A stretch of 64,000 nt of DNA from positions 1,888-65,887 of the forward strand of contig JAZDIN010000024.1 of assembly GCA_043804895.1 (NCBI GenBank), written 5' to 3'. The stretch is from Candidatus Altiarchaeota archaeon. Its GTDB lineage: Archaea > Altiarchaeota > Altiarchaeia > IMC4 > SCGC-AAA252-I15. Position numbers and translations under genes: made by a program. The stretch's first letter is position 1; every line of letters begins with the position of its first letter. Shown piece after piece: positions 1-42,344 of the stretch. The notes below the pieces were generated by a model. That model made no database searches. It saw nothing but the letters and a program-made list of their open reading frames with translations, and was not told where the DNA came from.

Positions 1-3000
1 CCATATGGAGGGTCCTGTGGTGTAGTTAAATGGTGGGCCCATTACTGTGTCTGGCTGCCATACGTATCCTAGTGGGGGGATTGGCTTAGTCAGTCCTGTT
101 ACTGCGTGCGGTTTAGTACCGTATGCGTAGGCTGTCGTTCCTGTGTCGGCTTCGACGTTGAGTATGTTGCCTAGTGAATTGTAGGTGTAGTTCTCCCAGT
201 ATCCACCGTCCTCCTCCGCGGTGAGGAGCCTGTTGAGGCCGTCGTATGTGAAATGTTGGTTGCTTTGTGTTGTCTTGTCGTCTATGTTGAGTACGTTGCC
301 TGCCGGGTCGTACTGGTAGTTGAGGTCCTGTATTCCTGCGGAGGATATCCTGTTCAGCCTGAAGGTTGCGGGGTCGTAGGTGAGTTGCGTCTCCGTCTGG
401 CCCCAGTCTTTGAGTGTTATCTTGTTTAGTGCGTTGTAGTCTATGTTCTCTACCGCGTTGGTTATGCTGTTTACTTCCCCTTGGGTGTTGTAGTTGTACG
501 TTAATGTCGGGAATCCTGGCGTCGTCTCGGTTTTCACCCTGTCTGCCGGGTCGAAAGTCCAGGCTGTCGTCCACACCCTGCTGTCCATGGCCTTTGTCTC
601 GCTCGTTTTCCTGAGCTTCTGGTCGTAGTCGTAGGATGTAGTGCCTAACTGGTCCTGAACCGAACTCAAAGTCCCCTTGATAGCGTCATACTGGTACGTC
701 ACCGTCTGGTCTGGGCTTAGCCTCCTCCTCACCCTGTTCAGCTCATCATACTCGAACGTAATCTGCGTCCCCTTATTGTCAGTCTGCCTCAAGAGGTTCC
801 CAGCCGAATCGTACTCGTACGTCCATACCCCAAGGTCCGGGTCATCCATCCCAATCTTACGGCCTAGGGAGTCGTATGTGAACTTAAACTGGTTGCCGTG
901 GTTGTCCATTATCTCCACAAGGTTGTCCTGCGCGTCGTAGCCGTAGCTTGTGGCATAGACGTCGCCGCCGTTGTACTCCCTCACCTGCGCCACCATCCCG
1001 TACCCGTCCAGCACGTAGTCTTTCCTGTTGCCTTTCTCGTCCCATGCGCTCACAGTCCACCTGTCGAATGCCTGTTTCTTTACTGTGCCATCTGTGTTGG
1101 TGACGTTCGCGACCCTCCCGACTATGTCGTAGCCTATCTTCGTGGACAGCACCGCCTGCGGCGTGCTGTACGCGTCTGTCTTATCCCCCAGGTACGGTAT
1201 CGACTGCTCCCGCACCCCTCCAATATTGTTGTAGTACACGTTCGTGACAATCTGTTTTAGCGGGTCCTCAGCATCCCTCTTAGACTGTACTACTCTGCCT
1301 AATCCGTCGTAGTATTCTAGGAAGTTGAGCGGCGTCGTGTCGGTCTTTTTGATGACTTTCACGCTCTCAGGCGCAGTCCCATCCACCACATACAGGTACT
1401 GCGTCGTAGGCGACGCATCAGAATCGTACGGCCTAATCTCCTTCGTCTTCCTTCCGAGCTGGTCGTATTTGTATGCTGTCACATACCCGTTCGGGTCCGT
1501 GACAGAGAGTATGTTGCCTGTGCCGAAGTCGTATCTCACATTCGTCGTGTGGAGCAGGTGGTTGATGGTCTGCTCAGGATACGTGTACGTAGTGTCTGTG
1601 ATGCCGTACACTTGCCTTGTATTGTGGTTGAGCGGGTCCGTGGCCTTAACCTGGTTCCCGTAGCCGTCGTACTCGAACGTCGATATTGGATTCCCTCCCG
1701 TACTCAGCCAATCCTCCTTCCGAGTCAAGTCGCCTTTCGTCGGCGGACTGCCGTAGCCTTGGCCGTCGTAGCTGAGGAAGGATTCGCTGACCTTCCCGCC
1801 AGTGGCATTGACCAGGTATGCATGCTTGGGCCTGTCAACAATCCAGGAACCAGTATTATAGAGGTACTCACTGTACGCGTACCTCTCATCACCTGAGACT
1901 GAGGTGTCCCCGAGGTAGCTTGTGTTAATGGTGTTCTCGTACTGGTCGTACCCGTATTCGGCTGCGGTGATTCTCGGATTGTCTAGGCCGTCGTGGGTGT
2001 ATTCTTCGGTCCTTGTAAGAAGCGGATTGTATATGCCGTTGACGCTTCCGCCGGATATCGTGTTCTTTGTCTGGGAGTATTTCACGTCAAGCTGGTCTGC
2101 GTCGTACTCCTCGTAGGCCATCCCCTTTCTCGCATCGTCTTGGTGGAACCTGGTTGTCGTCCTCCCCCCGTCGGGCCTTGTCACTACCGCAACGTTGAAT
2201 CCCCTGTATTCCCTGTCCTCGTAGTCGTGCAGTGCGCCCTCATAGTAGTACCCTATTGTGTTGGATGTCTGGTGGGCGCCGCCCATCCTGTTATCCTCTT
2301 TGACAGACTCAACGCACCAGACCGGATAGCTTAACTTGTCCTCCACGGTCTGCATGTTGAATTTCTCAGCAGCCTTGTAGTTGATTGTCGTGTTTCCTCC
2401 GAAGCCGCTTATGACCTCCCTGAGGCTATAGGGGGCCACCCCGTACTTCAGCAGGTCTCTTCTGACGTCGGGTAGGCCGTCGCCGTTTAAGTCTATGACG
2501 TTGCCGCTTAGGCCTATGTCAACGCCCGCCGCGATCCAGCTGTCGTTTTGCACCCACCCTGTCCCGTTGTTGATCCACGTATGGTTTGTGGCTCCCGCGG
2601 CCTGAAGTACGTCGACTAGGCCGTCACTGTTGAGGTCCACGTACCTGCATTTGTCCGCTGCCTTGAAGGTGCACGGGTTCTGCCATTGCGTGGTCTGGCC
2701 GAGCCATACCAGCGAGAGGCCTGTATTCATTATCTTTTCTGTGCCGAGAATGTCATTGTTGCCGTCTCCGTTCAAGTCTATCACGCCCCAGGTCTCGCTG
2801 GTGTCGAAGTTGACTCCCACGTTCGGCGCCCAGCTGTCGTCTCTTGTGAAGTTTTTGCCGGTGTTCATCCAGGCCTGGTGGTCGTCGCCGTTTGTCCTGA
2901 CCACGTCGATTAGGCTGTCGCTGTTGAGGTCGATGAACCTGCACTGGGTGGCTGATGCGAAGTCGCAGACGTTCCCCCACTGTGTGTTCCATACCCATCC

Positions 3001-4683
3001 GCTGCCTGTGTTCAGGTAGGTTCCGGTGAAGCTGTGGATGTCGTCCTTGCCGTCCCCGTTGACGTCCAACAGCCCCCACCCCGTGTCTCCTGTCAGGATC
3101 ACATTGCTTGGGGGGGCCCATCGGTTGTCCTCGGTCCATCCTGCGCCGTTGTTCAGCCAGCTTTTTTTCAGTACGCTGTTCGACTGTATTACATCTGCCA
3201 GTGAGTCTCCGTTTAGGTTGCCGAACCTGCAGCCGTCGGCGTCGCCGAATGCGCATGGCAGCTGGTTGTATCCGCTGTTCCAACCTGGCACTGCGGGGTT
3301 GTATGCGAAGGAGGTCTTGGGCAGGCAGGTTGTGCCGTCCGAACCGCAGACTTCTATGTTTGACAGGAGCGTGATGGTCTTCATGTCATTCTGGGCGTAG
3401 CCGAAGTTCACCTTCCTCACCAGGCTGCCGTCGTATTTCTCAGTCATCTCCTTGAGCCTTTTGCTCATCCGCACCTCGGCTCCGTCTTCGTATGTGAGCC
3501 TGCTGTTGGGGTTGTCCTCCAAGGTGAATTCTATTGCCCTCTTGCGGTCGTTGTTGTACTCGATTTTGCTCAGGTAGGATGTCCCCCTGTCGTCAGCCCC
3601 GGGGTTCTCGGCGTACGTGTAATATACACTGTTCCCGTGCGTGTCCTCGACGTCGTCGAGACTCCAGCGCACAACAAACGGTGTGGTGCCGTTGTTTGGG
3701 ACGTTGTATCTGAAGTGGAAGTCAGCACTGGCGGAGCACGGGGCTGCGCCGCAGTACTCTCCCCCGTACTCCGCGTATGCGCAGACTACCATCTCAACCT
3801 GATTCTGGCTTAACACATGGTAGGTGTGGTCACAACTGTGGGCGTTGCAGTTCGTGTTGTCTATGGAGACGTACACAATCCAGTTTCCGGCTCCGGCGTC
3901 AAACACCTGCTTCTTGCATCCGCCTGACCCGGAACCCCAGTTGACGAAGACATGCTGGTCCGCGGTATATTGTGTCGGCTTTTGAGGTACTCTCCTTGTC
4001 AGTTCGCTGTTTGCGACGTATCCGAACCTGTATTTGACGCCACCTTTGTCCCTCACCAGCCAGTATGTGCCGTTCTCGTTCAACGCCCCGGTCTTCTTTT
4101 CGATGTAAAGGTACGACTCAGGCTGGGTGTGGTATCTTCCGTCGGCGGCAACATGCTTCAGGTCATATCTGGCCCCGTTCAAGTACAGTCCGTACTCGTC
4201 GTCTGCCCCATTGTCCATGGTGCCGTTGACGTCCTTTTCTATGTAGTTGCCTGTGAACCTCCAACCGTTACCAATCCAACTGTTAGCCTGTGCATTCTGG
4301 CTGTTGTATTGGAGAGTCAAGGATGGTGCGAGGCCGTTAGTGCCTGGCATGACAGGTACGTCGTAGGTGTATGTGGCTGCGCCCGTGAACAGACCAGTCT
4401 CATAGTACCCGTCTGCTCTGATTGACGTCTGTGGCTGGATGGCCTGGAATGAAACCGGAGTGTAAGATGGTCCGGCGCCCATCGGCTGACCTCCTCCTTC
4501 TGGTGGTGTTTCGGGTGGCGGCTGTTGGTCGGCCGGGGGTTCTGGGCTGGGAGCTGGCTGCAAATCGTCTCCGCCGCTGTCACCTGCCGGCGGTGTTCCG
4601 CTCGTGTCTTGGCCGTGGACGAGTCCGATGAAGAGAGTTATTATGATTGTTGTTGCGAGGAGTAGTCTGTTTTTGTTTTTCAA
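1..4683 (-). CDS. Giant secreted RHS/YD-repeat protein with an SpvB-like N-terminal region and FG-GAP/VCBS-like repeats (Tc-toxin BC-like polymorphic toxin). The C-terminal tip lies beyond the left window edge.
   Basis: Hand translation of the minus strand (codons at 3k+1..3k+3) is open wherever sampled: near 4683, 3960, 3480, 2700, 1380, 720, 360 and 180. The N-terminus KKLKNKNRLLLATTIIITLFIGLVHG looks like a signal or anchor and is followed by a Pro-rich linker. TGAATYTYDVPVMPGTNGLAPSLTLQYNSQNAQANSWIGNGWRF is an SpvB/TcB-type N-terminal signature. VDLNSDGLVDVL and IDLNGDGLPDV are FG-GAP-like. Many YD repeats follow (YQYDPAGNVLNIDD, FTYDGLNRLL, YYDGLGRVVQSKRD). It is absent from the ORF track because it has no in-window stop. 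No in-frame ATG follows the upstream TAA, so the start is TTG 4683 or GTG 4719. Confidence 0.85.
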   Translation of the reverse strand, partial: MKNKNRLLLATTIIITLFIGLVHGQDTSGTPPAGDSGGDDLQPAPSPEPPADQQPPPETPPEGGGQPMGAGPSYTPVSFQAIQPQTSIRADGYYETGLFTGAATYTYDVPVMPGTNGLAPSLTLQYNSQNAQANSWIGNGWRFTGNYIEKDVNGTMDNGADDEYGLYLNGARYDLKHVAADGRYHTQPESYLYIEKKTGALNENGTYWLVRDKGGVKYRFGYVANSELTRRVPQKPTQYTADQHVFVNWGSGSGGCKKQVFDAGAGNWIVYVSIDNTNCNAHSCDHTYHVLSQNQVEMVVCAYAEYGGEYCGAAPCSASADFHFRYNVPNNGTTPFVVRWSLDDVEDTHGNSVYYTYAENPGADDRGTSYLSKIEYNNDRKRAIEFTLEDNPNSRLTYEDGAEVRMSKRLKEMTEKYDGSLVRKVNFGYAQNDMKTITLLSNIEVCGSDGTTCLPKTSFAYNPAVPGWNSGYNQLPCAFGDADGCRFGNLNGDSLADVIQSNSVLKKSWLNNGAGWTEDNRWAPPSNVILTGDTGWGLLDVNGDGKDDIHSFTGTYLNTGSGWVWNTQWGNVCDFASATQCRFIDLNSDSLIDVVRTNGDDHQAWMNTGKNFTRDDSWAPNVGVNFDTSETWGVIDLNGDGNNDILGTEKIMNTGLSLVWLGQTTQWQNPCTFKAADKCRYVDLNSDGLVDVLQAAGATNHTWINNGTGWVQNDSWIAAGVDIGLSGNVIDLNGDGLPDVRRDLLKYGVAPYSLREVISGFGGNTTINYKAAEKFNMQTVEDKLSYPVWCVESVKEDNRMGGAHQTSNTIGYYYEGALHDYEDREYRGFNVAVVTRPDGGRTTTRFHQDDARKGMAYEEYDADQLDVKYSQTKNTISGGSVNGIYNPLLTRTEEYTHDGLDNPRITAAEYGYDQYENTINTSYLGDTSVSGDERYAYSEYLYNTGSWIVDRPKHAYLVNATGGKVSESFLSYDGQGYGSPPTKGDLTRKEDWLSTGGNPISTFEYDGYGNQVKATDPLNHNTRQVYGITDTTYTYPEQTINHLLHTTNVRYDFGTGNILSVTDPNGYVTAYKYDQLGRKTKEIRPYDSDASPTTQYLYVVDGTAPESVKVIKKTDTTPLNFLEYYDGLGRVVQSKRDAEDPLKQIVTNVYYNNIGGVREQSIPYLGDKTDAYSTPQAVLSTKIGYDIVGRVANVTNTDGTVKKQAFDRWTVSAWDEKGNRKDYVLDGYGMVAQVREYNGGDVYATSYGYDAQDNLVEIMDNHGNQFKFTYDSLGRKIGMDDPDLGVWTYEYDSAGNLLRQTDNKGTQITFEYDELNRVRRRLSPDQTVTYQYDAIKGTLSSVQDQLGTTSYDYDQKLRKTSETKAMDSRVWTTAWTFDPADRVKTETTPGFPTLTYNYNTQGEVNSITNAVENIDYNALNKITLKDWGQTETQLTYDPATFRLNRISSAGIQDLNYQYDPAGNVLNIDDKTTQSNQHFTYDGLNRLLTAEEDGGYWENYTYNSLGNILNVEADTGTTAYAYGTKPHAVTGLTKPIPPLGYVWQPDTVMGPPFNYTTGPSIW

Positions 4684-4907
4684 CTTTTTCTTGCCGCGAT
4701 AACAGTATGCCGTTCCCACCGTTAGTTTTTACGTGTACTGTGGGTTTAAAAAGTATTATATTAAAAGATAGTAATAGTGTTTATACCATCTTTTTGGTTG
4801 AAGAAGGGATTTTAATCAGAGCCGAACTTGACGTTCCGTCTTGTTCCGGCCTTTTCCGGGTTAGGCTCTTATGTTGTTCCATCCTAGTCTGGTGTGAGGT
4901 GAAAGGT

Positions 4908-6062
4908 ATGGATAGGAAGTTAATGTTTGTTTTGGCTGCTGCGCTGCTTGTTGCATCAGCTGTTGCAGCATCAGCGCAGAACGATAGTGTGGGGGATGAC
5001 GTGAAGGCATTCGGCTCTCAGCTGGGAGCTAGGGTGCGTCTTCTCATGCTGGAGGCGAGCATCGAGAGGAACATACTTTGGGGCAGCGAGATAGTCGCGG
5101 CTGTGGAGGACAGGAATTCCAGCGCAGACACTAGCGGCCTGGAGTCCGTTTTAGCTGAGATGCAGGCGTTGAAGGACGAGGTCGCGGCAATAGACCCTGG
5201 GACAGGCGAGGAGGCAGCGCAGGAGTTCGTTGACATAAAAAGCGAAGCCATCGACTTGACTCGCGAATTCAGGGAGGAGGCGAGGGGGATGCTCCCGCCC
5301 AGGGAGTTGAACAGTCTTCGAGTTAAGCTTGGGGCGCTGAAGCACGGGAGAGTGCAGAGTCTGAAGGAGAGCATCAACGAGACGAAGAGGGAATACAACG
5401 GGCAGAATGTTGAGGAGCTGCTGTCATCGCTTGGGCTGAGCAACCCTGACCTGGTTGACGGCGTGAGAAACGGCGACGCGAAAATCGGCGACGTCAGAAA
5501 GTACATAAAGGACGCTGGGGGGAACATGAGCAAAGACGAGCGGAAGGAGGCGTTCCTGAAGCTGAAGGAAGAGACTACCAGCGCGGGTGTGTTCATGAGA
5601 GCCATAGTAGACAAGAACATGTACAAGAGAGTCACAAGACTCCAGGAGAGGATGGAAAAAAGGCTCCGGAAGGCAGGGAACTTGAACGTCAGCGACGCTG
5701 CTTTAGCGAGGATTGAGAAGAGGATAGAGGTTCTCGGCGGCAGGATGGGGAGAGTCCAGAATAAAACTGAGGCGAGGATAGCGAAGATTGGCGCCATCAC
5801 AAGCAAGAGAGTCGAACGAATAGAAGGCATCATAGAACACGAGGAGGATAAAAGCCAGGAGACGGAGGATCGACTCGAGAACAGACTCCAGTCATGGAAC
5901 ATCACAGAGGAAGAGGAGGAGAGGGTAGGAAACCGGCTCGCAAGGATTGAGGAGAAGTCAGAACTTAAGATTGGTAGGTTAGAGGCTAAGAAGGTTGAAG
6001 TCGAAGAGCGGGGGGAGAAGAAGCAGAACCGCCTCAGGGGGAATATGGAGGGTGAAGAATGA
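4908..6062 (+). CDS. Secreted coiled-coil protein rich in E/K/R, function unknown
   Basis: Internal ATG at 4908 is preceded by GGTGAAAGG. The product starts MDRKLMFVLAAALLVASAVAASAQ (signal-peptide-like). The listed TTG start at 4647 adds an implausible Cys-rich extension across the divergent promoter. Long heptad-like charged repeats occupy the C-terminal half. Confidence 0.6.
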   Translation: MDRKLMFVLAAALLVASAVAASAQNDSVGDDVKAFGSQLGARVRLLMLEASIERNILWGSEIVAAVEDRNSSADTSGLESVLAEMQALKDEVAAIDPGTGEEAAQEFVDIKSEAIDLTREFREEARGMLPPRELNSLRVKLGALKHGRVQSLKESINETKREYNGQNVEELLSSLGLSNPDLVDGVRNGDAKIGDVRKYIKDAGGNMSKDERKEAFLKLKEETTSAGVFMRAIVDKNMYKRVTRLQERMEKRLRKAGNLNVSDAALARIEKRIEVLGGRMGRVQNKTEARIAKIGAITSKRVERIEGIIEHEEDKSQETEDRLENRLQSWNITEEEEERVGNRLARIEEKSELKIGRLEAKKVEVEERGEKKQNRLRGNMEGEE

Positions 6063-13457: not shown

Positions 13458-14678
13458 ATGAAACTTGATTTTTTGCGCGGTTTATTGGGTTGGAGTAACG
13501 AGGTCACGTATGGTGGGCCATATTTGATTGAGTTTCGATTTTTTGGTTCTTCTCAGGATTTCGTTAGGGATTTGTGTCGCCATCTTTCCCATGAATTTGA
13601 AATTCGCCAGAACGCAAGAGGAGGTAGGCCTGCTCACATAACCCTTTATGGCGGTTTTGACACGAAGGATGAGGAGGAGATGATTAATAGATTCATGAGA
13701 GTCTGTAAAAGATGCGACTTGGTTGAGTACACAGTAAGTGGAGTTAGCCATATTGGAGATAAAGTCATCTCCTTGGATGTTTCCCCATCGGATGAATTAA
13801 AGCAATTAAGAGAAGAGTTAGCTAGAGAGCTGAATCCAATATGCTCAGCTCGTCAATGGGATAAACCAGGTGGAGAATTCATCTTCCACACAACCCTTGC
13901 TAACCATATTGAACGAAAAATTGATAAGCTCTGGGAGTACCTTAAAAACCTTAAAACACCAAAAATCAGGGAGTACGTGATACGGATAACATTATTAAAA
14001 AATGGCATGATACTACGTGAATATGACCTTATCCAAAGACGACGCCTAAACAGGAGAGAGGCCCTGAACCAAAGAACATATGCTGAAGACATTAGATTCA
14101 TCAAAGAGTTTAAACAAAATGGTGGGAAGAGGACTAGCCATGTTTTAGGATACGACCCTAAATCAAAAGATAAACTCTACCTAATATCAGACTTGCATTT
14201 AGACCATACAAATATAATCAAGTATTGTAAGAGACCGTTCAAAGATGTAAATGAGATGAATGATACGCTTGTTGAAAATTGGAATAAGACGGTAAAACCC
14301 AACGATAATGTGATATTCCTCGGGGACCTATCGTATGGCCGTGAAAGTAGAGGTGCGGAATATTGGTTGCCCAGGCTTAATGGGAAAATTCGGTTTATTG
14401 AGGGGAACCATGAGGACGTGCATGGAGTTAGTGTAAAGACATACCCACCAGCACATAATGTATTTCTCAGGTATGGAGAACAAGAATTCCTCTTAACACA
14501 CGACCCAGCAATAAAACCACTGGGATGGGAAGGGTGGACGATACATGGGCATAAACACAACAACGATTTGAAGAACTTTCCATTTATCAACAAGGATGAA
14601 AAGACAATTAATGTTAGTGTTGAAACGATTGAGTACAAACCAATTAGTATGAATGTGTTGGTTGATAGACTTGCATGA
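13458..14678 (+). CDS. Fusion protein: N-terminal 2H phosphoesterase (LigT-like) plus C-terminal calcineurin-like metallophosphoesterase
   Basis: Two HxT motifs (AHITLYG and FHTTLANH) lie in the first ~190 aa. They are followed by LISDLHLDH, RPF, FLGDLSYG, IEGNHED, LLTHDP and IHGHKH. The gene is clearly AT-richer than its flanks. Confidence 0.65.
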   Translation: MKLDFLRGLLGWSNEVTYGGPYLIEFRFFGSSQDFVRDLCRHLSHEFEIRQNARGGRPAHITLYGGFDTKDEEEMINRFMRVCKRCDLVEYTVSGVSHIGDKVISLDVSPSDELKQLREELARELNPICSARQWDKPGGEFIFHTTLANHIERKIDKLWEYLKNLKTPKIREYVIRITLLKNGMILREYDLIQRRRLNRREALNQRTYAEDIRFIKEFKQNGGKRTSHVLGYDPKSKDKLYLISDLHLDHTNIIKYCKRPFKDVNEMNDTLVENWNKTVKPNDNVIFLGDLSYGRESRGAEYWLPRLNGKIRFIEGNHEDVHGVSVKTYPPAHNVFLRYGEQEFLLTHDPAIKPLGWEGWTIHGHKHNNDLKNFPFINKDEKTINVSVETIEYKPISMNVLVDRLA

Positions 14679-15475: not shown

Positions 15476-16354
15476 TCATATGCATGGTATCCACGGGTAT
15501 TTGTCTACGTAGCAGGGGTATGCGTTGTAGCAGTTCGCGAACTTTGATACCGCAAACCAGTAGATGTCGGCGCTGCTGTAGCAGTACGCCCCCTTCAATG
15601 CTGTACCAAGGAGGCATGTGTACCGGAATGGGTTGTACCACCCGTAATTTTTGCAGCTTTTTTCTGAGGGGTGGATTTTATTCACGCATATTTGGTCCAG
15701 TTCTTTGCTGAACTCCTCGTCGCAGGATTCTTTCGCATCCAAGGTCATTGCGCATTGGCTGTAGCATCTGTCGTGGCCGTAGCATGCCGGGTTGAAGTCT
15801 ATGCCTGAACCCGGCGGACCCCGGGGGATTACGGCCATCACCCAGGGGCGGTTTTCCGGGCCGCAGTATTTGCTTTTGTTGACGTAGGTCGGGTAGGGGG
15901 TGATATCCAGTTGTTCTATGTCACGCAGAGTTGTTGTCGTTATCGTAGTCCTTGTGGTGGTCGTGGGTCTGATTGTGGTCGACGTGGACGCTGTTGTGGT
16001 TGTAGTCCTTCGGGTGGTGGTGGTCGTCCTGCGGGTGGTAGTTGTCGTCCGGTGAGTGGTGGTCGTCACCCGTTGGATGATGATTATCCTCCTTAAGGTG
16101 GTGGTCGTCGTCCTCTTTTTGGCGGTCGTCGTAGTGTAGAAACCCACGCAAGGGATCATATTGTCATCCTCGTCAAAGCATGTGTTGTAGCAGCCCCAAG
16201 GCAGCTGGTCTCCAGGGATATGTCTCCCATATTTAGGGCTTATACGCGTGCAATCAGTCGAATCGCCCAAAACAGCCTCTGACTGGGGAGCCAGCAGAAC
16301 AAGGATGAAGGCACAGCACAAGATAAGAGGAAACACATAATTCCAGTGTGCCAC
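15476..16354 (-). CDS. Secreted Cys-rich protein with a Thr/Arg-rich linker and a C-terminal phospholipase-A2-like motif
   Basis: GTG start preceded by AAGGAG. Signal peptide MAHWNYVFPLILCCAFILVLLAPQSEA. Linker of about 70 aa. The C-terminal domain has KYCGPEN ... NPACYGHDRCYSQC, resembling the Ca-loop and CxxHDxCY catalytic motif of secreted PLA2. The CDS is confident; the function is tentative. Confidence 0.45.
   Translation of the reverse strand: MAHWNYVFPLILCCAFILVLLAPQSEAVLGDSTDCTRISPKYGRHIPGDQLPWGCYNTCFDEDDNMIPCVGFYTTTTAKKRTTTTTLRRIIIIQRVTTTTHRTTTTTRRTTTTTRRTTTTTASTSTTIRPTTTTRTTITTTTLRDIEQLDITPYPTYVNKSKYCGPENRPWVMAVIPRGPPGSGIDFNPACYGHDRCYSQCAMTLDAKESCDEEFSKELDQICVNKIHPSEKSCKNYGWYNPFRYTCLLGTALKGAYCYSSADIYWFAVSKFANCYNAYPCYVDKYPWIPCI
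15929..16135 (-). repeat. Imperfect in-frame tandem repeats encoding (T)4-5-R-R units
   Basis: TTTTHRTTTTTRRTTTTTRRTTTTT, with a period of about 21 nt on the coding strand. Confidence 0.7.
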
Positions 16355-17092: not shown

Positions 17093-19150
17093 ATGTTAAC
17101 CGGGATGGTTGGGTCGTTAGTGTCTCTGGCGTTAGTCTCGCTGATGCTGCCTGGCGGATACAACATAAACCTTGAGGTCTCAAACAGCACGTTCATGAAG
17201 CTCGCCTTGTATGATGACACGGCCGAGGCCTGGAATCAGCGGACTGTGGATGCATTCAACGCCAACAGGACGTACACGGTTGAGAGGGGCACGTGCTCGA
17301 ACACGACTGCGGATAATCCGGCAGAATCCTACGGGGGCCGTATCGGCGGGACAGGGAACCTGAGGTTGGATGGGGTGAATGTATCGTCTGAAATATTCAC
17401 AGACGGTTGTGGGGTAATCTACGCCGCTGAGCCTACATACTATGAAGGTAGCCGGAACCGGACGTGGGTTGAGGAGGGTGTGCTGTCCCTCTACGTAGGC
17501 CAAGGCTGCACCAGCCGGGAAGTCAACGGCACATGGGACAATCTCGAGATGGGAGTGCCCGGGACTGGGAGGCATAAGGAATATCTCCTGCCGGTGGTGG
17601 AGGAGACTGTAGTGCTGGCCGACGGAGGAGTCTGCTATAATGAGACGGTGGTGCACGGTTCCGGAGGATTTCCAGAATCGGTCGATACAGTGAAGGTCAT
17701 TCAGGTCAACTGCTCAGTCAACGGCTCGGACACTATCATCAGACTCGAACACACCTGCCGCGGATACGTCCTATTGGACAGCGCATACCTTGTAATGGGT
17801 TGGGTGAAGCGGTGCGACAGAGAGAGGTATATGAAGAACTGTCTTGAGGGTTGCAGCGCAGCGAACGCGGCAGGCTCCAAAAGCACTGGAGGGGGAGGCG
17901 GCACTGGAGGCTCATGCGACGGGGGATGCTGCAGGTCAGTGTGCACAAACCAGGCGAACCACAAGTGCAGGGAGGATGAGAGCGAGAATGCCGTGTGCCC
18001 TGATGTGCCGTCCGGGCAATACGGCAGCCCATATGATGGTTCGAGCGAGTACTTCATCGGTAAGCCTGGGGACAGTCACCCTGACCCCTGCTACTGCCAC
18101 CACCTTTTGGATGCTTCCAACATTTGCATGAACAACCGCGTCAGCCTCGCAGCATCCCAGGGTTACGAGTGCACTGATGTGAGGGAGTACACGATTGAGA
18201 TTAAGCCGAGGCTCACATGCAACGGGAGCTACTTTAAGTCAGGAGATTTTGGCCAAGGTTACCTTAGCCTAGAAGTCGAGCCTGACGTTGCGACAGCCTT
18301 CATCGTCGGCGACATACCCTACCGTTTCCAGACGTTCGCACCAAGGCACATACTCTATGGGACTGTTGAGGCTGTAAAATATTACAGTCTCGCAGACGGA
18401 GACTACAGGATTAACGAGTCGCATGAGGACAGCGGCTACTTCGACTTCGCATACTATGAGACAGTAGAGAACAAGTATCCTCCGAGGGTTGGAGAAGGGA
18501 TAGTATTGGATGAGGTCTCAGGAGGAAACGGGAGTTACAGGACGGGGTTCGCAGTCTCCGATGCTGGGAGAATAGGGAACCTGACTCTGACTGTGCTTAC
18601 GGTCGGGGACAGGATAGGTGGGGGGAGGGAATGCGACTTCGGGAACCCGTGCCCTGAGGGGATCTTCTGCATGGACGGAAGATGCCTTAACTTGGGTGAA
18701 GTAGAAAACCAGACTGTGAGATTCAGCGAATGCCTCACAGAGGCTAAGCAGGTGAACATCACGTTGAGTGTTCCTGATATTGTCGGCGAACGCTCGAGTG
18801 CGACTGCACTTGTGACGTTGAGTGCTGGTGGGCCGCTACCGGGCCGGACTGTGTCGTTCGGCTGCTGGGGCTGGCGGCAGAATGCGACGACCGATGGTGG
18901 CGGCAGAGCGTCTTTCACGTTCACTAGTGGGGTCGGCGCCAGCCTTTGCACCGCATCATATGGTGGGGATTATCAGTACAGTCCGGCGACGGCGGAAAAA
19001 TGGGTTCACACCGCCGCAAGAGGACCGGACTTTCGCATCTGGCTGATGTTCATTGCGCTCCTCCTTGTTATCGCCATCATATTCACTGCAGCATCGGGAG
19101 GGCGCACAATCTACGACGTGTATGAGACGCTGCGGGGGTTCATGAGATGA
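17093..19150 (+). CDS. Large Cys-rich, sequon-rich surface protein with a C-terminal membrane anchor
   Basis: N-terminal hydrophobic segment, at least a dozen N-x-S/T sequons by eye, a Gly/Cys cluster GGGGGTGGSCDGGCC, and a C-terminal TM IWLMFIALLLVIAIIFTAA. Confidence 0.6.
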   Translation: MLTGMVGSLVSLALVSLMLPGGYNINLEVSNSTFMKLALYDDTAEAWNQRTVDAFNANRTYTVERGTCSNTTADNPAESYGGRIGGTGNLRLDGVNVSSEIFTDGCGVIYAAEPTYYEGSRNRTWVEEGVLSLYVGQGCTSREVNGTWDNLEMGVPGTGRHKEYLLPVVEETVVLADGGVCYNETVVHGSGGFPESVDTVKVIQVNCSVNGSDTIIRLEHTCRGYVLLDSAYLVMGWVKRCDRERYMKNCLEGCSAANAAGSKSTGGGGGTGGSCDGGCCRSVCTNQANHKCREDESENAVCPDVPSGQYGSPYDGSSEYFIGKPGDSHPDPCYCHHLLDASNICMNNRVSLAASQGYECTDVREYTIEIKPRLTCNGSYFKSGDFGQGYLSLEVEPDVATAFIVGDIPYRFQTFAPRHILYGTVEAVKYYSLADGDYRINESHEDSGYFDFAYYETVENKYPPRVGEGIVLDEVSGGNGSYRTGFAVSDAGRIGNLTLTVLTVGDRIGGGRECDFGNPCPEGIFCMDGRCLNLGEVENQTVRFSECLTEAKQVNITLSVPDIVGERSSATALVTLSAGGPLPGRTVSFGCWGWRQNATTDGGGRASFTFTSGVGASLCTASYGGDYQYSPATAEKWVHTAARGPDFRIWLMFIALLLVIAIIFTAASGGRTIYDVYETLRGFMR

Positions 19151-25293: not shown

Positions 25294-25326
25294 AAGCATA
25301 TAACCACCACCAGGTAATTGTTTAAC

Positions 25327-26019
25327 ATGAGGCTTGCCGCGTCAGTCATACTCCTAGTGCTACTCTCAGGCTGCACGATGCTCCCATGCAATCCACCTAT
25401 GAAACGCATCGGAGGCGAATGCTGCCTAGACGGAGACAACAACCAGGTGTGCGACAAAAACGAGGCTGGAAACGAAGCAGACAAAGAATGCGAGCCACCC
25501 TACATCCTAAGCAGTGGGGAATGCTGCCTTGACACCAACGGAAACGGGGCCTGCGACACGGAAGAGACGACGGAGAACCGCCCCCAAGCAGCGGCCCAAG
25601 TCATTAATCCGACCACCACAACGCAACAGCCGACCACAACGACACAAAATACGAACCCGACCACAACATCCACGGCGACCACTAGCACGGTGAGAGTATA
25701 CCAGACGCCCACAACACTACCCGTCTGCTTCGACACAGACGGGGGAGAATCACCCAACCTCGCCGGAGTCACAAGCGGATTATACAGAGCCCCACCCCAC
25801 GGCCTGACAAGCTCGGCAGACTACTGCCTTAATAACGTCAGCGTTAGGGAATACCGCTGCGAAGGCGACCTAGTATACGGCAGGGACATACTGTGCAAAA
25901 GCCAGGAGACGTGCGTAAAAGGCAGATGCTGCCTCCCATCAGGAGTGAAATGCAGCTCCAGCACAGAATGTTGCAACAAAGAATGCATAAAAAAACAATA
26001 CATAGGATTGTGCTATTGA
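25327..26019 (+). CDS. Cys-rich lipoprotein with a Thr-rich linker and a knottin-like C-terminal cysteine framework
   Basis: MRLAASVILLVLLSGC lipobox. Duplicated GECCLD..N..CD units. Linker PTTTTQQPTTTTQNTNPTTTSTATTST. C-terminus CLPSGVKCSSSTECCNKECIKKQYIGLCY. Confidence 0.6.
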   Translation: MRLAASVILLVLLSGCTMLPCNPPMKRIGGECCLDGDNNQVCDKNEAGNEADKECEPPYILSSGECCLDTNGNGACDTEETTENRPQAAAQVINPTTTTQQPTTTTQNTNPTTTSTATTSTVRVYQTPTTLPVCFDTDGGESPNLAGVTSGLYRAPPHGLTSSADYCLNNVSVREYRCEGDLVYGRDILCKSQETCVKGRCCLPSGVKCSSSTECCNKECIKKQYIGLCY

Positions 26020-33526: not shown

Positions 33527-33687
33527 CGCCTCCGCAAGGACTTGAACCTTGGACCACTCGATATCAGCAACCTGCCTGATTCCATCCTTTTTGAGCTTTA
33601 TTTTCTTTTGGGGATGAAACCCTTTTCTTTTTTTAAAAGAAAAGGGGTTCTAACAGTCGAGCGCTCTACCAGCTGAGCTACAGAGGC
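33527..33687 (-). tRNA. tRNA-Asn (GUU) interrupted by an intron of about 88 nt after position 37
   Basis: Exons fold as GCCTCTG-TA-GCTC-AGCTGGTA-GAGC-G-CTCGA-CTGTTA[intron]A-TCGAG-TGGTC-CAAGG-TTCAAGT-CCTTG-CGGAGGC-G, giving a 73-nt mature tRNA. The intron contains a perfect 12-bp hairpin cccttttctttt-aaa-aaaagaaaaggg. Confidence 0.8.
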
Positions 33688-38384: not shown

Positions 38385-39091
38385 AGTATCACCTTCCTTG
38401 CCGTGACCCTCCATTCTGCGGAGTTCATGCAGGGTATCCCGTATTGTTTGCACGTGCGGCGTATGTTCTCCGAGTCGGAGAGGACTACGCTTGGAGTCTC
38501 CCTTGCGATTGCCACGCTCGCGTAGGGTGTGTCGTCGTTGTTGGCTTCCGCTTTGACGAACACCTGCGTCTTTGCGCCGCACACCTCCACCTCGCCCAAT
38601 CCCTTCAAATCCAACGCTGAGCGAGCCTCAGGCCATATCTCACGAGGGACGCACACGAAACCGAACACCGTATGTAGCGCCTTAACGTCCTCGCAGGTCA
38701 CGGCCTCGATGAAGTCCATCTCAGCTACCGCACTGCACGCTCCGAGCGCGATGCTATCATACTCCACATTCTTAGGTTCGGCCTTCCATTCCACTCTACA
38801 CACTGAAGATGCACGGCTCCCAGGATTTTTTGGTGCTGTCCTCCTTTGATCGTTTCCTGTCGATTTTGATTTTTCGACCAACTGGTTTTTGATTGCCTGA
38901 GTCTCGTCGAGGTCGTTTGGTTGGTCGGCAGGCTGGCTTAGCACGAGCTGGGATATTTTAAAGCGGCAGGTTAGGTTCAGGCTGAGGGAGGCAACCGCCA
39001 ATATGGCGAAGGATAGGATGAGTGTCCTCTCATCATGTCCGAGCATTCCCAAGTATCCTGCGAACTTCCCTACTAAGTCAGTCATCCCCAA
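38381..39091 (-). CDS. Membrane-anchored protein with a possible PIN-like C-terminal domain
   Basis: TM segment LILSFAILAVASLSLNL. The C-terminal domain has VEYDSIALG near its start and VVLSDSENIRRTCKQYGIPC near its end, which is a weak PIN-like pattern. Confidence 0.35.
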   Translation of the reverse strand: MGMTDLVGKFAGYLGMLGHDERTLILSFAILAVASLSLNLTCRFKISQLVLSQPADQPNDLDETQAIKNQLVEKSKSTGNDQRRTAPKNPGSRASSVCRVEWKAEPKNVEYDSIALGACSAVAEMDFIEAVTCEDVKALHTVFGFVCVPREIWPEARSALDLKGLGEVEVCGAKTQVFVKAEANNDDTPYASVAIARETPSVVLSDSENIRRTCKQYGIPCMNSAEWRVTARKVIL

Positions 39092-42000
39092 CCCTTGCCG
39101 GAAAAAGACTCCTCAGCGCGGACTTGACTTCATAAGCCATGATGACGTTGCCGTATCCGCCTGCAACGAGAGCATCCCTTACGCCCTCAGTCAAGGCGAT
39201 GAGTATGAGCGAGGTGTTCCCAATGGCAGCTTCGATTTTCCTTTGTAGCCCGTCCAATTCCTTCATCGTCAGGACCTCCACAGCTATCATCCTCCCGTTT
39301 GGTAGCTTTGCTGTGACGTCAGGCATCACCCGCTCATGCATCCTGACTGTCATCTCATCGTCAGTTAGGCCGAGCCTGAATCTCACGCTCTCAAGGTACT
39401 TGAATATGAGGAACTTGCGCAGGAAGTGGATGGTATCCTCTGAGTCTGGCTTTTTGACGTAGTATACTTTCCTGTCATCCCGGCTTAATCCGATGTCCGC
39501 AACCTCCACGTACCCCTCACTCTTAAGCCTTTTCAGGTCCGCCTCCTTCAGGACTTCTCGCGGGAGGACCGGATCTCTGCTGGCGTCGAACATTAGGTTC
39601 GTTGTGGTCTGCGGTCGCGTCATCTCAAAAGTAATCCTCTCTTCCGGGCTGGTGGAGAGCATCCGCTTCTCGTACTCGCTTGCTAGGACGAATAGGGGAA
39701 TCTTCACTGACGGCGTGAGCATGAGGACGTCGCCTGTGCCGGCGTTCTGGAGGAACATCCTCTGGTTCTCGGTCAAGGCGAAGCTATCGGCTATCATCCT
39801 CAACCCAACAGCCTCCTGCCTGAGGAGGAATTTCGTAGATGTGTTGTTCAGTATCACATGGCCGCGCGGCATCCCTGTTGCGTCCTTTGACAGTAGGTCT
39901 TCGACGTTCTGGTCTATTATGACGACGCTCAGGTTCTCTTTCCTGCCGGTCCGGACTATGGGCCCGAGGTAGTCCTGGTTGTTCTCGAACACGCTCCATG
40001 CCTCGTCCACGAGTATCATCTTCCGCTTCTCCCTCCTGTGTTTGGCTACCCATGAGCGGATGTAGTCGAAGACGATGAAGAGGGCCATGGACCGCTCCAA
40101 TGGCTTGAAGGCTGTGGTTGAGGATATGTCGAAGCAGACTATGTTCTTGCCCTTAAGGTCCACCGTGGTCTCTTGGTTGAGGTATCTGAGGTCGCCTGAG
40201 ACGAGGGGGGTGATGTAGCTTAGGAGGGCTTCAGCTGTGACCTTCTTCCATGACTCAGCCCTGGAATTCGAATCTGAGGCGAACTGGTTGAGAGCCTCAT
40301 AAACGCTTGTGAATGTCGGTGGCGTTTTACCCCAGGTGCTATCATCGTCCGGATATATCCCCGCCTTCCTGTATGCGTTGTCTATCATCCTGTCCACTAT
40401 GCCTGATGCTGCACCTGACAGCCGCTCGTCCATGTTCCCCCTGAGTATGTTGAAGAACGCCTTAACGCTACCCTTGCGGCCATCGTAGGTGTCGTTGCCG
40501 AGGTCGAATATGTTGATTGTCGACTTTGAGTCGTGACTGAGCCGTATCACCTGTCCGCCCATCTTCTCAACCAGCTTCCCGTATTCCCCCTGGGGGTCTA
40601 TGACGAACATGTCGACGTCGTGCATGGCTTCGGAGAGGAAGAGCTTTTTCACGAGGAAGGACTTCCCGGAGCCTGAGCTTCCGAGCACCAGTATGTGGGG
40701 GTTAGGTTGCGTGAACACATCCAGTAGCACCGGTATGCCGTTGAGCTGGTTGTATCCTACGACGACTGCTCCGTCGCCTGCGTCCGCCAGGCAGCTGAGT
40801 ATGAACGGGTAGGAGTCCCTGACCGCGCTTGAGGGGAATAGCCTGTCGCGGCGCTCCCCCAGCTTGTCCTCAGCCAGCGGGTAGCAGCTTTTCAATGCGT
40901 CCTCCATCTCCCAGTTAGCGACCCTCACCTGCGCGTTCATCCCCTCCAACACGTCCTTGATTCGCATCACAGCCAAGTCGAGTTCCTTCTGCCCGTAGGC
41001 TTTGACGTTAACGTACAGCGCGACGTCGAAGCACTTCTCCTCGTCCCTTGATACACGGTTCAGAAGTTCCTTCACCTTCTGGAGGTTCACCCTGTCCTTC
41101 TCGGAGACTAGGAGGCATTCACGCTCCCTTGTCGTCACGTCAGTCTCGAGCTTCGTAATCTCATGCTGGAGGTAGTCGACGCTTGTCTTCTGGCTCAGGG
41201 GATGCATGTGGAAGACTATGTCAAAGTCTATGGGCTGCCTTATCAGCTTCGTCAGCCAACCGGGGTGGACGACAGCCGGGAACCGGACCGTGAACAGCAC
41301 CCTGTGGAGTTTCTCCACCTCAGCATGGCTCTTGTGGAAGTCGAGTGAGGGGGGCATAAGCTGCTCAACAACGAATGATTTGCGGTCTGATGTGTTGCGG
41401 ACGTAGTCAAGGCCGGCCTGCTCGAATCTCGCCTGCAGGCGCTCATCGTACATGGGGGCGAACGGATCCAATGAGTTTCCGAATCTCTTGAGCATCTCTT
41501 TCGCCTCTGACATCGCCTCCATGCCGTTGTGGAAGGTTAGTGGGCTGAACGCGCCTGAAGTGAGTTTGAACCTCGGGTTGTAGAAGTTGGCGTAGAACCT
41601 TATCAGGTCTTCTGTCTTAAGCCTCTCGCAGTCTATGCCTGAGTCCCTTAGGCTTGCCATCAGGTTTCTCGTCTTAGCATCAAGGTCCACCATCGCCTTC
41701 TTCAGCTGCCCACCCATGGGCTGGGTGATGATGATGTAGTAGTCGCGGTCAGTCACAGTCTTTGAGGTGACGACGCCGCGCAGGAAATCTGCGAAGTGTT
41801 CGAAGTAGCTCATGCGCTCGGTTTTTCCGCCAAGAAGCACCTTCTCCTTCAGCCTCTGCAGGTAGCCTTCGACGTCTATCTCCGTCGATGACATGATTAT
41901 CTGGATGTTGGTGCTGAGCTCATGGAGGAAGGTTCCGTATCCTGCAAGCACCTTCTCTATGTCAGATTCGCTGAGGCTTGCCAAGTCCTTCGGCATCACC

Positions 42001-42344
42001 TTCACAGCTGACAGGAGTCGGTGGTCGGAGGTGAACACGGTGTCGCAGTCGATGTCATCGACGCCGATGAATTCCCGCATCTTCTTCGTGTTCCACAGGA
42101 GGCGTTTCCTGCCGCTTGCGAACCGAAGCCACAGGTATGTTTTTTCGTCGATTCCGAAGAATGCTATGCCGGCGTAGGCGAATATGTACAGTAGGCCATA
42201 TGAGAGGACGATTATGGGCTGGTAGCCCCGGAATGCTAGTATGATGCCTGGCACTGCTAGTGCGAGCATTATGGCGCTTTGTGTGAACGTGAGGTTGCCT
42301 AGGAATTTCTCCTTGTATTGTGAGGTAGCAAATGTCTCGACCAT
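39078..42344 (-). CDS. VirB4/TrbE/TraC-like conjugation-type ATPase with an N-terminal double-TM (VirB3-like) prefix and an extra C-terminal nuclease-like tail
   Basis: VLGSSGSGKSFLVKKL (Walker A, about 40660..40690), KMILVDEAW (Walker B, about 39996..40020), GRKENLSVVIIDQNVEDL and NNTSTKFLLRQ. N-terminal helices AIMLALAVPGIILAF and IIVLSYGLLYIFAYAGIAFFGI. The C-terminal ~200 aa contain MPDVTAKLPNGRMIAVEV. Confidence 0.65.
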   Translation of the reverse strand: MVETFATSQYKEKFLGNLTFTQSAIMLALAVPGIILAFRGYQPIIVLSYGLLYIFAYAGIAFFGIDEKTYLWLRFASGRKRLLWNTKKMREFIGVDDIDCDTVFTSDHRLLSAVKVMPKDLASLSESDIEKVLAGYGTFLHELSTNIQIIMSSTEIDVEGYLQRLKEKVLLGGKTERMSYFEHFADFLRGVVTSKTVTDRDYYIIITQPMGGQLKKAMVDLDAKTRNLMASLRDSGIDCERLKTEDLIRFYANFYNPRFKLTSGAFSPLTFHNGMEAMSEAKEMLKRFGNSLDPFAPMYDERLQARFEQAGLDYVRNTSDRKSFVVEQLMPPSLDFHKSHAEVEKLHRVLFTVRFPAVVHPGWLTKLIRQPIDFDIVFHMHPLSQKTSVDYLQHEITKLETDVTTRERECLLVSEKDRVNLQKVKELLNRVSRDEEKCFDVALYVNVKAYGQKELDLAVMRIKDVLEGMNAQVRVANWEMEDALKSCYPLAEDKLGERRDRLFPSSAVRDSYPFILSCLADAGDGAVVVGYNQLNGIPVLLDVFTQPNPHILVLGSSGSGKSFLVKKLFLSEAMHDVDMFVIDPQGEYGKLVEKMGGQVIRLSHDSKSTINIFDLGNDTYDGRKGSVKAFFNILRGNMDERLSGAASGIVDRMIDNAYRKAGIYPDDDSTWGKTPPTFTSVYEALNQFASDSNSRAESWKKVTAEALLSYITPLVSGDLRYLNQETTVDLKGKNIVCFDISSTTAFKPLERSMALFIVFDYIRSWVAKHRREKRKMILVDEAWSVFENNQDYLGPIVRTGRKENLSVVIIDQNVEDLLSKDATGMPRGHVILNNTSTKFLLRQEAVGLRMIADSFALTENQRMFLQNAGTGDVLMLTPSVKIPLFVLASEYEKRMLSTSPEERITFEMTRPQTTTNLMFDASRDPVLPREVLKEADLKRLKSEGYVEVADIGLSRDDRKVYYVKKPDSEDTIHFLRKFLIFKYLESVRFRLGLTDDEMTVRMHERVMPDVTAKLPNGRMIAVEVLTMKELDGLQRKIEAAIGNTSLILIALTEGVRDALVAGGYGNVIMAYEVKSALRSLFPARVGDD

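Follow-up and report, generated by a model that had tools for sequence, protein, structure and literature searches.

A Predicted Sec-Exported Cocoon Protein of the Tc-Toxin BC Type in Candidatus Altiarchaeota, and Its Relatives in Other Archaea and in Bacteria

The stretch of DNA analysed here, which we call the window, spans 64,000 nucleotides of a contig (JAZDIN010000024.1, assembly GCA_043804895.1) assigned to a Candidatus Altiarchaeota archaeon, and its left end is filled by one giant open reading frame (ORF) on the minus strand. The product of this gene, hereafter the cocoon protein, combines an apparent secretion signal with the domains that form the shell of Tc-toxin BC cocoons, and we consider it rather probable that it is the exported carrier of a polymorphic-toxin system with RHS/YD repeats, of the TcdB/TcaC (Tc-toxin BC) type and native to Altiarchaeota. 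The evidence comes from profile and structure searches with the shell, from the genes that accompany the shell in relatives, and from the gene content and codon usage of the contig.

Results

Architecture and Fold of the Cocoon Protein

An earlier note on this DNA, written from the sequence alone, had compared the encoded SpvB/FG-GAP/RHS architecture with that of Tc-toxin BC subunits, and the comparison is borne out by Pfam, NCBIfam, profile and structure searches alike. [quoted passage not shown] Its positions 275-761 align with residues 320-790 of TcdB2, and there are weaker matches to integrin alpha and to fungal lectin propellers. The AlphaFold2 model of residues 401-1573, calculated from a 39-sequence alignment, has a mean predicted local distance difference test score (pLDDT) of 85.4 and a predicted template-modelling score (pTM) of 0.76, being confident to residue ~1545 and disordered beyond. 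When this model was searched with Foldseek, the top match was again TcdB2-TccC3 (E 2.8e-53), with a query-normalised template-modelling score (TMq) of 0.80 and a root-mean-square deviation (rmsd) of 5.6 A, whereas TMq was 0.57 for TcdB1 and 0.55 for YenB, which represent TcB alone. Because the fit to the fusion exceeds that to TcB alone, the single chain is modelled as spanning both TcB and a portion of the cocoon's TcC half. The features of the gene are as follows, all on the minus strand and in window coordinates.

1..4719, minus: coding sequence of at least 2202 codons, the N-terminal 1573 of which lie in the window (open frame and identity to MFH1055157.1)
4743..4766, minus: a pair of TATA-box-like stretches rich in A/T (ttttaatataat, actttttaaacc), recognised by eye upstream of the start
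4681..4683, minus: alternative start TTG, which would yield a canonical signal peptide M-KNKNR-LLLATTIIITLFIGLV-HG
4612..4719, minus: residues 1-36, read from the sequence as a Sec-type signal peptide or as an anchor at the N-terminus, with predicted cleavage at VHG/QD
4435..4611, minus: Pro/Gly/Asp-rich linker, residues 37-95 (translation)
3280..4422, minus: SpvB-like N-terminal shell strip, residues ~100-480 (Pfam SpvB match; invariant columns Y117 to Y473)
3676..3999, minus: Cys-rich insert of ~108 aa in the SpvB-like region, residues ~241-348 (sequence comparison against the invariant columns E239 and W352)
2425..3282, minus: six-bladed FG-GAP (integrin-like) beta-propeller, residues ~480-765 (six motifs, FG-GAP_3, profile alignment)
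2125..2496, minus: TcdB_toxin_midN domain, residues 742-865 (Pfam PF12256)
85..2124, minus: YD/RHS-repeat shell wall, residues 866-1545, ~680 aa (RHS_repeat, YD_repeat_2x, AlphaFold2, Foldseek)
1..84, minus: first 28 residues of a non-RHS, sequon-rich C-terminal extension (sequence of MFH1055157.1)

The signal or anchor and the Pro-rich linker that had been described at the N-terminus are seen in the translation, and the Pfam families expected behind them (SpvB, FG-GAP, TcdB_midN and RHS_repeat) all score above their cut-offs. The SpvB model (PF03534) matches residues 112-167 with 27.0 bits (cut-off 22), covering only its positions 4-57 of 287; outside this match the strip is divergent and contains the ~108-aa insert. 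This insert has eight cysteines and, among the sequences read, is shared only with the closest relatives P0002 and P0003; together with the C-terminal extension it sets this clade apart. FG-GAP_3 (PF13517) is matched at residues 695-752 with 27.3 bits (cut-off 26.9), TcdB_toxin_midN with 30.4 bits (cut-off 24.8), and RHS_repeat (PF05593) in several segments with 90.4 bits (cut-off 22), while YD_repeat_2x of NCBIfam (TIGR01643) reaches 76 bits, also above its cut-off. Six D/N-x-N-x-D-G/S-x-x-D motifs, at residues 501, 552, 597, 648, 695 and 743, are spaced by 45-51 residues and thus fit a propeller of six blades.

The module that is conserved throughout the family ends at a PHA(V/L)T motif, which in the cocoon protein is PHAVT at residues 1537-1541 (nt ~111). 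The shell stops there, exactly where relatives attach the RHS-associated core. The repeats consequently do not run off the window, as had been supposed earlier: what runs off is the sequon-rich extension.

Integrity of the Gene and Its Start Codon

The cocoon ORF occupies minus-strand frame 1 from window position 4728 to 1 and is stop-free across 1576 codons, in keeping with the continuous frame of more than 1560 codons first described; it contains neither an in-frame stop nor a frameshift. The other two minus-strand frames of window 1-4728 have 89 and 49 stops, and the upstream in-frame stop is TAA 4731-4729. Family-invariant residues are spread along the full length of the protein in the family alignment. 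The gene is indeed missing from the ORF listing that accompanied the sequence, but only through an artefact of that listing, from which run-off ORFs were omitted. It has already been annotated in GenBank as MFH1055157.1, a protein of 2202 aa from the Candidatus Altiarchaeota metagenome-assembled genome (MAG), encoded on a contig of 75,827 bp and 100% identical over 100% of our translation; this annotation agrees with the domain calls of the earlier note. The GenBank protein runs for 629 residues past the window, and its frame has not closed where the contig stops, ~1887 nt leftward.

In-frame start candidates are GTG 4719, TTG 4683 and TTG 4563, while the first ATG is codon 83 (4482), located 3' of both the signal peptide and the Pro-rich linker, so that export of the protein would require a start other than ATG. 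The N-termini of the relatives that we read are likewise hydrophobic signal peptides, and all of these proteins appear to be exported. Of the candidates, only GTG 4719 and TTG 4683, the pair proposed earlier, precede the hydrophobic N-terminus and keep the signal peptide. The NCBI protein begins with MGTAYCY, hence from GTG 4719. Reading the sequence upstream of GTG 4719 and of TTG 4683 revealed no Shine-Dalgarno motif, and either of the two may be the true start. The proximal TATA-box-like element lies ~27 nt from GTG 4719, a distance that would fit a leaderless mRNA.

A Sequon-Rich Extension beyond the Shell

Past the shell, the final 28 residues in the window, together with the 629 that lie further on, form an extension that continues with two beta-rich, lectin-like regions and ends in at least three tandem immunoglobulin (Ig)-like repeats of 98 aa (294 nt each) with 68-71% mutual identity. 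Per 1000 aa, it has 50-86 sequons for N-glycosylation (N-x-S/T), compared with 7.8 for the shell. Residues 1574-2202 have no match in Pfam or NCBIfam, and none in the PDB by phmmer with E up to 10; single-sequence modelling with AlphaFold2 conveys their all-beta secondary-structure character only. The hypervariable regions (HVRs) of TcC, which constitute the natural cargo of Tc cocoons, are under 40 kDa in 99.8% of cases (PMC7861908). Since the extension, with at least 660 aa, exceeds such cargo, it must be placed outside the shell.

What, then, is the origin of this extension? It is homologous (E 3e-10 and 7e-9) to the N-terminal part, preceding the core, of L001_d746, the 746-aa core protein (L001 15477-17717) encoded downstream of shell P0003 in an Altiarchaeota relative, in which a discoidin-like region and an Ig-like module are found. 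This homology suggests a fusion between shell and partner; the simplest reading of the sequences is that the cocoon gene is such a fusion, in which core and toxin would follow the repeats. One copy of the 98-aa module also occurs in P0122, a protein of 205 aa composed of a signal peptide, this module, a Thr-rich stalk and a transmembrane helix followed by KKKK.

The contig end likely reflects an assembly break within the tandem Ig-like repeats. Protein searches with the terminal repeats for a continuation of the contig returned only two short proteins of the JGI, neither of which continues it, and the same repeats found nothing in the GTDB genomes. Exact-protein look-ups for the neighbouring gene at 4908-6062 and for MFH1055157.1 gave no record and no overlapping assembly was found; the next-best match to the cocoon protein is 49-53% identical, with no close copy in another assembly.

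RHS Cores and Hypervariable Tails in Relatives

The earlier note had expected the toxin tip and an immunity gene directly beyond the left edge of the window. In the 629 residues (1.9 kb) now available there, no RHS core is found; the contig then ends with the ORF still open. The two closest relatives, with 49-53% identity, come from an Altiarchaeota MAG and from an unlabelled metagenome contig, and in both the gene immediately after the shell encodes the RHS-associated core (TIGR03696, Rhs_assc_core; 68.6-72.5 bits, cut-off 32.5). These core genes comprise the core and a variable tail, and are followed by genes for small transmembrane proteins, which are candidate immunity factors. One of the two loci has a second, orphan cassette of core plus tail, and the tails of two proteins of locus L001 include hydrophobic stretches.

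A hidden Markov model of the ~200-residue core was then searched across all fetched loci, 62 of which have a near-complete shell ORF. Core and hypervariable tail are fused or adjacent to the shell in 53 of the 62: the core is fused to the shell in 21/62, encoded directly downstream in 13/62 and directly upstream in 19/62. It was not seen in the remaining 9/62 loci, most of which stop at the contig end. Among short core ORFs (<700 aa), 28 of 39 start with a classical signal peptide directly before the RHS core; split loci with such proteins include L010, L012, L014-L017, L021, L023, L025, L030, L033 and L037. This arrangement implies, as far as sequence can tell, that shell and plug are exported separately in split loci. 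The tails that follow the core (n=72) measure 83-290 aa and fall into 54 sequence clusters, a diversity that reads as the signature of polymorphic toxins.

Some tails show a common ending. Those of L001 15477-17717 and 18947-20341, of L002 12594-14132 and of P0018 are otherwise different, and all finish with [WY]YLGG at the extreme C-terminus; they have no Pfam match, and the shared motif may serve as a conserved element, either of the toxin or for sorting. A conserved secreted protein of ~430-490 aa is encoded beside the shell gene, mostly directly upstream, in ten archaeal loci (L014, L022, L024, L027, L033, L037, L043, L049, L060 and L074). It may represent a third component; neither the Altiarchaeota loci nor the 64-kb window encode it.

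Host and Distribution of the Family

That the host is an archaeon, as had been assumed, is indicated by several genes of the same contig: a thermosome subunit (805 bits, with 762 bits for TIGR02339, thermosome_arch, both above cut-offs), replication factor A, an ATP-dependent DNA ligase of archaeal type, and the following tRNA gene.

33527-33687, minus: intron-containing tRNA, 161 nt overall, of a kind typical of archaea (Rfam, 54 bits; missed by ARAGORN)

The cocoon gene itself has a GC content of 0.552, a GC content at third codon positions (GC3) of 0.718 and a relative synonymous codon usage that correlates with r = 0.92 with that of the other genes of the window pooled together. Given its typical codon usage and the archaeal markers on the contig, nothing points to recent import or to mis-binning. 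One gene of the window does stand apart, that at 13458-14678 (plus strand, 406 aa), with GC 0.40, GC3 0.39 and a codon usage correlation of r = -0.17, compared with 0.71-0.92 for 15 other genes; judging from its composition, it was probably acquired recently. Its N-terminal half weakly resembles an RNA 2',3'-cyclic phosphodiesterase (27.5 bits, below cut-off), and its C-terminal half is metallophosphatase-like.

A pattern built from 10 closer sequences, with which every GTDB species was scanned through a single genome, retrieved 282 relatives. By label, 58 of the best 79 loci are archaeal and 21 bacterial, proportions that constitute a biased census, given that the ranking favours relatives of an Altiarchaeota query. 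The archaeal loci among these best 79 are distributed among Woesearchaeota (18), 'Methanosarcinales' (15, a doubtful label), Pacearchaeota (6), Nanoarchaeota (6), unclassified archaea (5), Altiarchaeota (4) and Micrarchaeota (4); the 21 bacterial loci belong largely to the Candidate Phyla Radiation (CPR), together with delta-proteobacteria and Nitrospirae. Taxon counts are approximate, for some MAG labels look imprecise. For instance, the 'Methanosarcinales' loci (e.g., L012 and L021) intermix with DPANN clades, the 'Ignavibacteria' protein P0028 lies at nearly zero tree distance from the 'uncultured Methanosarcinales' locus L022, and some other bacterial labels are also doubtful. In a rough neighbour-joining tree, which carries no support values, the Altiarchaeota clade lies next to a clade of delta-proteobacteria and Nitrospirae, DPANN sequences form a large clade and CPR is the outgroup. 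By the locus counts, the cocoon family is common in DPANN and Altiarchaeota.

An archaeal copy is therefore not the exception that the earlier note took it for, considering the 58 archaeal loci among the best 79, the native codon usage and the archaeal cases already published. Nor does the interdomain transfer that was then suggested hold as a recent import: the composition is native and the archaeal clades of the tree are large and deep.

Other Genes in the Window

The divergent neighbour of the cocoon gene, at 4908-6062 (plus strand), encodes a secreted protein of 384 aa rich in Glu, Arg and Lys, coiled-coil by eye and without Pfam match; it has a strong ribosome-binding site, GGTGAGGTGA, and shares an A/T-rich promoter region of 188 bp with the cocoon gene. 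Secreted, Cys-rich proteins with Thr-run linkers (e.g., TTTTTRRTTTTT repeats) and no family match are encoded at 15476-16354 (minus), 17093-19150 (plus) and 25318-26019 (plus), so that the region looks rich in unusual surface proteins. At 39081-42344 (minus) there is a VirB4/TraC/CedB-like ATPase of 1088 aa with N-terminal membrane helices. Its best matches are models of conjugal-transfer ATPases, whose cut-offs it does not reach (~245 bits); it may form part of an apparatus for conjugation-like transfer or for DNA import.

Discussion

A Proposed Mechanism and Its Weak Points

In functional terms, an exported toxin carrier could work in the following way. The shell would leave the cell by the Sec route and then fold outside the cytoplasmic membrane, a step suggested by the fact that shell and partner both carry Sec signals. 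The RHS core, as an aspartyl-protease plug, would close the shell and would cleave off and trap a hypervariable toxin tail of ~200 aa. Core and toxin, along with a small membrane immunity protein, would be encoded downstream, left of the contig end, the core being either fused after the repeats or, following the example of the two closest relatives, encoded by the gene that comes next. Binding to a neighbouring cell would fall to the propeller and to the glycosylated lectin/Ig modules, and delivery would proceed without a TcA injector.

Several observations weigh against this proposal. Neither the 2202 known residues nor the 64-kb window include a TIGR03696 core, a toxin or an immunity gene, and the toxin function of this locus is thus extrapolated from relatives. 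Many of these relatives have adhesin-like domains in C-terminal position after PHAxT, while the precedent of P0122 indicates that the missing C-terminus could be an anchor instead of a core. The single-sequence model of the extension is unusable (pLDDT 36). Folding of canonical TcB with TcC takes place in the cytoplasm and, to our knowledge, the extracellular assembly of a shell with its core has no experimental precedent.

Alternative Explanations

Most of these points would fit a surface protein devoid of cargo, in which YD shell and propeller sit on a glycosylated stalk with a C-terminal membrane helix and serve in adhesion between cells or to cell surfaces, as in teneurins. The 98-aa repeat does recur in P0122 ahead of a stalk and membrane helix, P0002 ends in a long Thr/Pro stalk, numerous relatives have adhesin-type C-terminal domains (CARDB, TSP3 and PKD), and teneurins and a teneurin-like protein are significant in structure and profile searches. 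We nevertheless regard this explanation as unlikely, given that 53 of the 62 relatives have core and variable tail, including the two closest, in which the C-termini are stalk-like or short; that the extension is homologous to a segment preceding the core in L001_d746; and that TMq does not exceed 0.35 for teneurins, compared with 0.80 for TcB-TcC.

Could the protein be instead, on the pattern of Photorhabdus and Yersinia, a canonical B subunit that docks on a pentameric TcA and receives TcC in full length? Its best profile and fold matches (TcdB2-TccC3, TcdB1 and YenB) and its SpvB and TcdB_midN domains point in this direction. However, the 64-kb window has no ORF of TcA size, the largest others encoding the 1088-aa VirB4-like ATPase and a P-type ATPase of 852 aa, and no VRP1/TcA match of Pfam is on record for the neighbours in L001 and L002, the loci of the two closest relatives. 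Canonical TcB is not known to carry a Sec signal peptide such as that of the cocoon protein, and the chain of the latter already covers part of the TcC shell. A TcC partner, with RHS half-shell, core and HVR, would measure 850-1050 aa (PMC7861908); the window has none of ~850-1050 aa, and the relatives' partners are shorter, reduced to a signal peptide, the ~200-aa core and a tail. Membership in the canonical ABC toxins is very improbable and we have rejected it on the lack of TcA in the window and in the two closest loci.

That the gene was recently imported from bacteria through interdomain transfer, or that its contig is bacterial and was mis-binned as archaeal, appears quite improbable and was rejected on the codon usage and the archaeal marker genes of the contig. 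The sister position of the Altiarchaeota clade to the delta-proteobacterial/Nitrospirae/CPR clade in the rough, unsupported tree would suit an import, as would the fact that the solved and characterised members of the family are all bacterial or eukaryotic. Conversely, thermosome, replication factor A, ligase and intron-containing tRNA share the contig, GC, GC3 and codon usage match those of the neighbours, from which the atypical gene at 13458-14678 stands out, and the archaeal homologues group in deep clades that dominate the best 79 loci. As to a pseudogene or an assembly chimera, the gene is cut by the contig end inside tandem repeats, a truncation that is most simply an assembly break between such similar units; the open frame of 1576 codons, the conserved residues along the full length and an AlphaFold2 model that is confident throughout make this explanation hardly credible, and it was rejected.

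Implications for the Family and Prior Knowledge

With the exported toxin carrier retained as the preferred explanation for this gene, a broader suggestion can be advanced, tentatively and with some doubt. The family of Altiarchaeota, DPANN and CPR might be a distinct, TcA-independent system of encapsulated toxins, in which the shell and an exchangeable cassette of plug plus toxin would each be exported by Sec, the cocoon would be assembled outside the cytoplasm, and glycosylated lectin/Ig modules would aim it at neighbours or hosts; the cocoon protein would then naturally combine, in one fusion, the shell and that part of its partner which does the targeting. Were this true, ultra-small episymbionts could have in this system a major weapon for cell contacts or a major device for interacting with hosts. 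Assembly of shell and cassette outside the cell would also amount to a new way of loading an RHS cocoon, and to a candidate mechanism of antagonism or host manipulation in organisms with poorly understood cell-cell interactions.

For its own part, the cocoon protein adds one already-annotated member to the polymorphic toxins that combine Sec export, SpvB, propeller and RHS repeats. The wider yield, and the most interesting by-product of the analysis, lies at the level of the family and mostly outside the window: a pattern of shells that are abundant in Altiarchaeota, DPANN and CPR, lack TcA and are often split into shell and cassette. Polymorphic toxins of archaea were reportedly treated already by Makarova and colleagues (mBio, 2019). 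An archaeal cocoon of BC type is not new, either, as Zhang, Aravind et al. (2012; PMC3482391) listed Euryarchaeota under the TcdB/TcaC type, which they define by a signal peptide, SpvB with an integrin-like propeller and RHS repeats, and Hamm et al. (2019; PMC6642349) described a BC-toxin-like region in SPEARE, a protein of the DPANN organism Ca. Nanohaloarchaeum antarcticus that was detected by proteomics. In the literature searched, we found no paper combining DPANN with RHS repeats, and no description of a pattern with full shell, short cassette of signal peptide, core and toxin, and no TcA.

Comparison with Known Systems

Among systems with related shells, the Rhs effectors of T6SS (RhsA 7Q97, Tse5 8CP6, RhsP 8H8A and Tre23 7PQ5) have the YD-repeat cocoon in common with our protein, matching residues 1195-1521 in phmmer with E down to 1.7e-20 and the model in Foldseek with E ~1e-32. 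They are without SpvB strip and propeller, possess PAAR or VgrG-binding N-termini, are fired by T6SS and superpose poorly on the cocoon model (TMq 0.33-0.47, rmsd 13-20 A). In teneurins and the bacterial teneurin-like protein (6FB3 and 9IFO), which act outside the cell in adhesion, a YD shell also goes together with a beta-propeller, and in teneurins the chain exits the shell into external domains. The shell of the cocoon protein is followed by an extension placed outside it. Similarity to the teneurin group is much weaker, with profile E of 5e-15 or weaker and TMq of 0.35 at most, and its members have an NHL propeller, which is of another type, and no SpvB strip. SPEARE can be likened by description only: it too is archaeal, extracytoplasmic and giant, with adhesion domains and a predicted BC-like region, but it reaches 5998 aa and also includes protease and restriction-enzyme domains.

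The definition of the TcdB/TcaC type (PMC3482391) is the one that the cocoon protein fits exactly, the differences being its origin from Altiarchaeota, the lack of a C-terminal toxin in the available sequence and the extracellular modules after the shell. Compared with the BC cocoons of Tc (ABC) toxins (TcdB2-TccC3 of Photorhabdus luminescens, 4O9X and 6H6E; YenB-YenC2 of Yersinia entomophaga, 4IGL), it presents the same SpvB-like strip, six-bladed FG-GAP propeller, TcdB-midN domain and YD shell, and its relatives carry an RHS core with a cocoon-sized hypervariable tail (83-290 aa). It departs from them in having a Sec signal peptide, a Pro-rich linker and a Cys-rich insert in the SpvB strip, in covering TcB and, by the model, part of the TcC shell with one chain for which no TcA partner was found in the loci considered, and in bearing a sequon-rich lectin/Ig extension of at least 660 aa after the shell, while the partner of its relatives is reduced to signal peptide, ~200-aa core and tail, in upstream, downstream or fused position.

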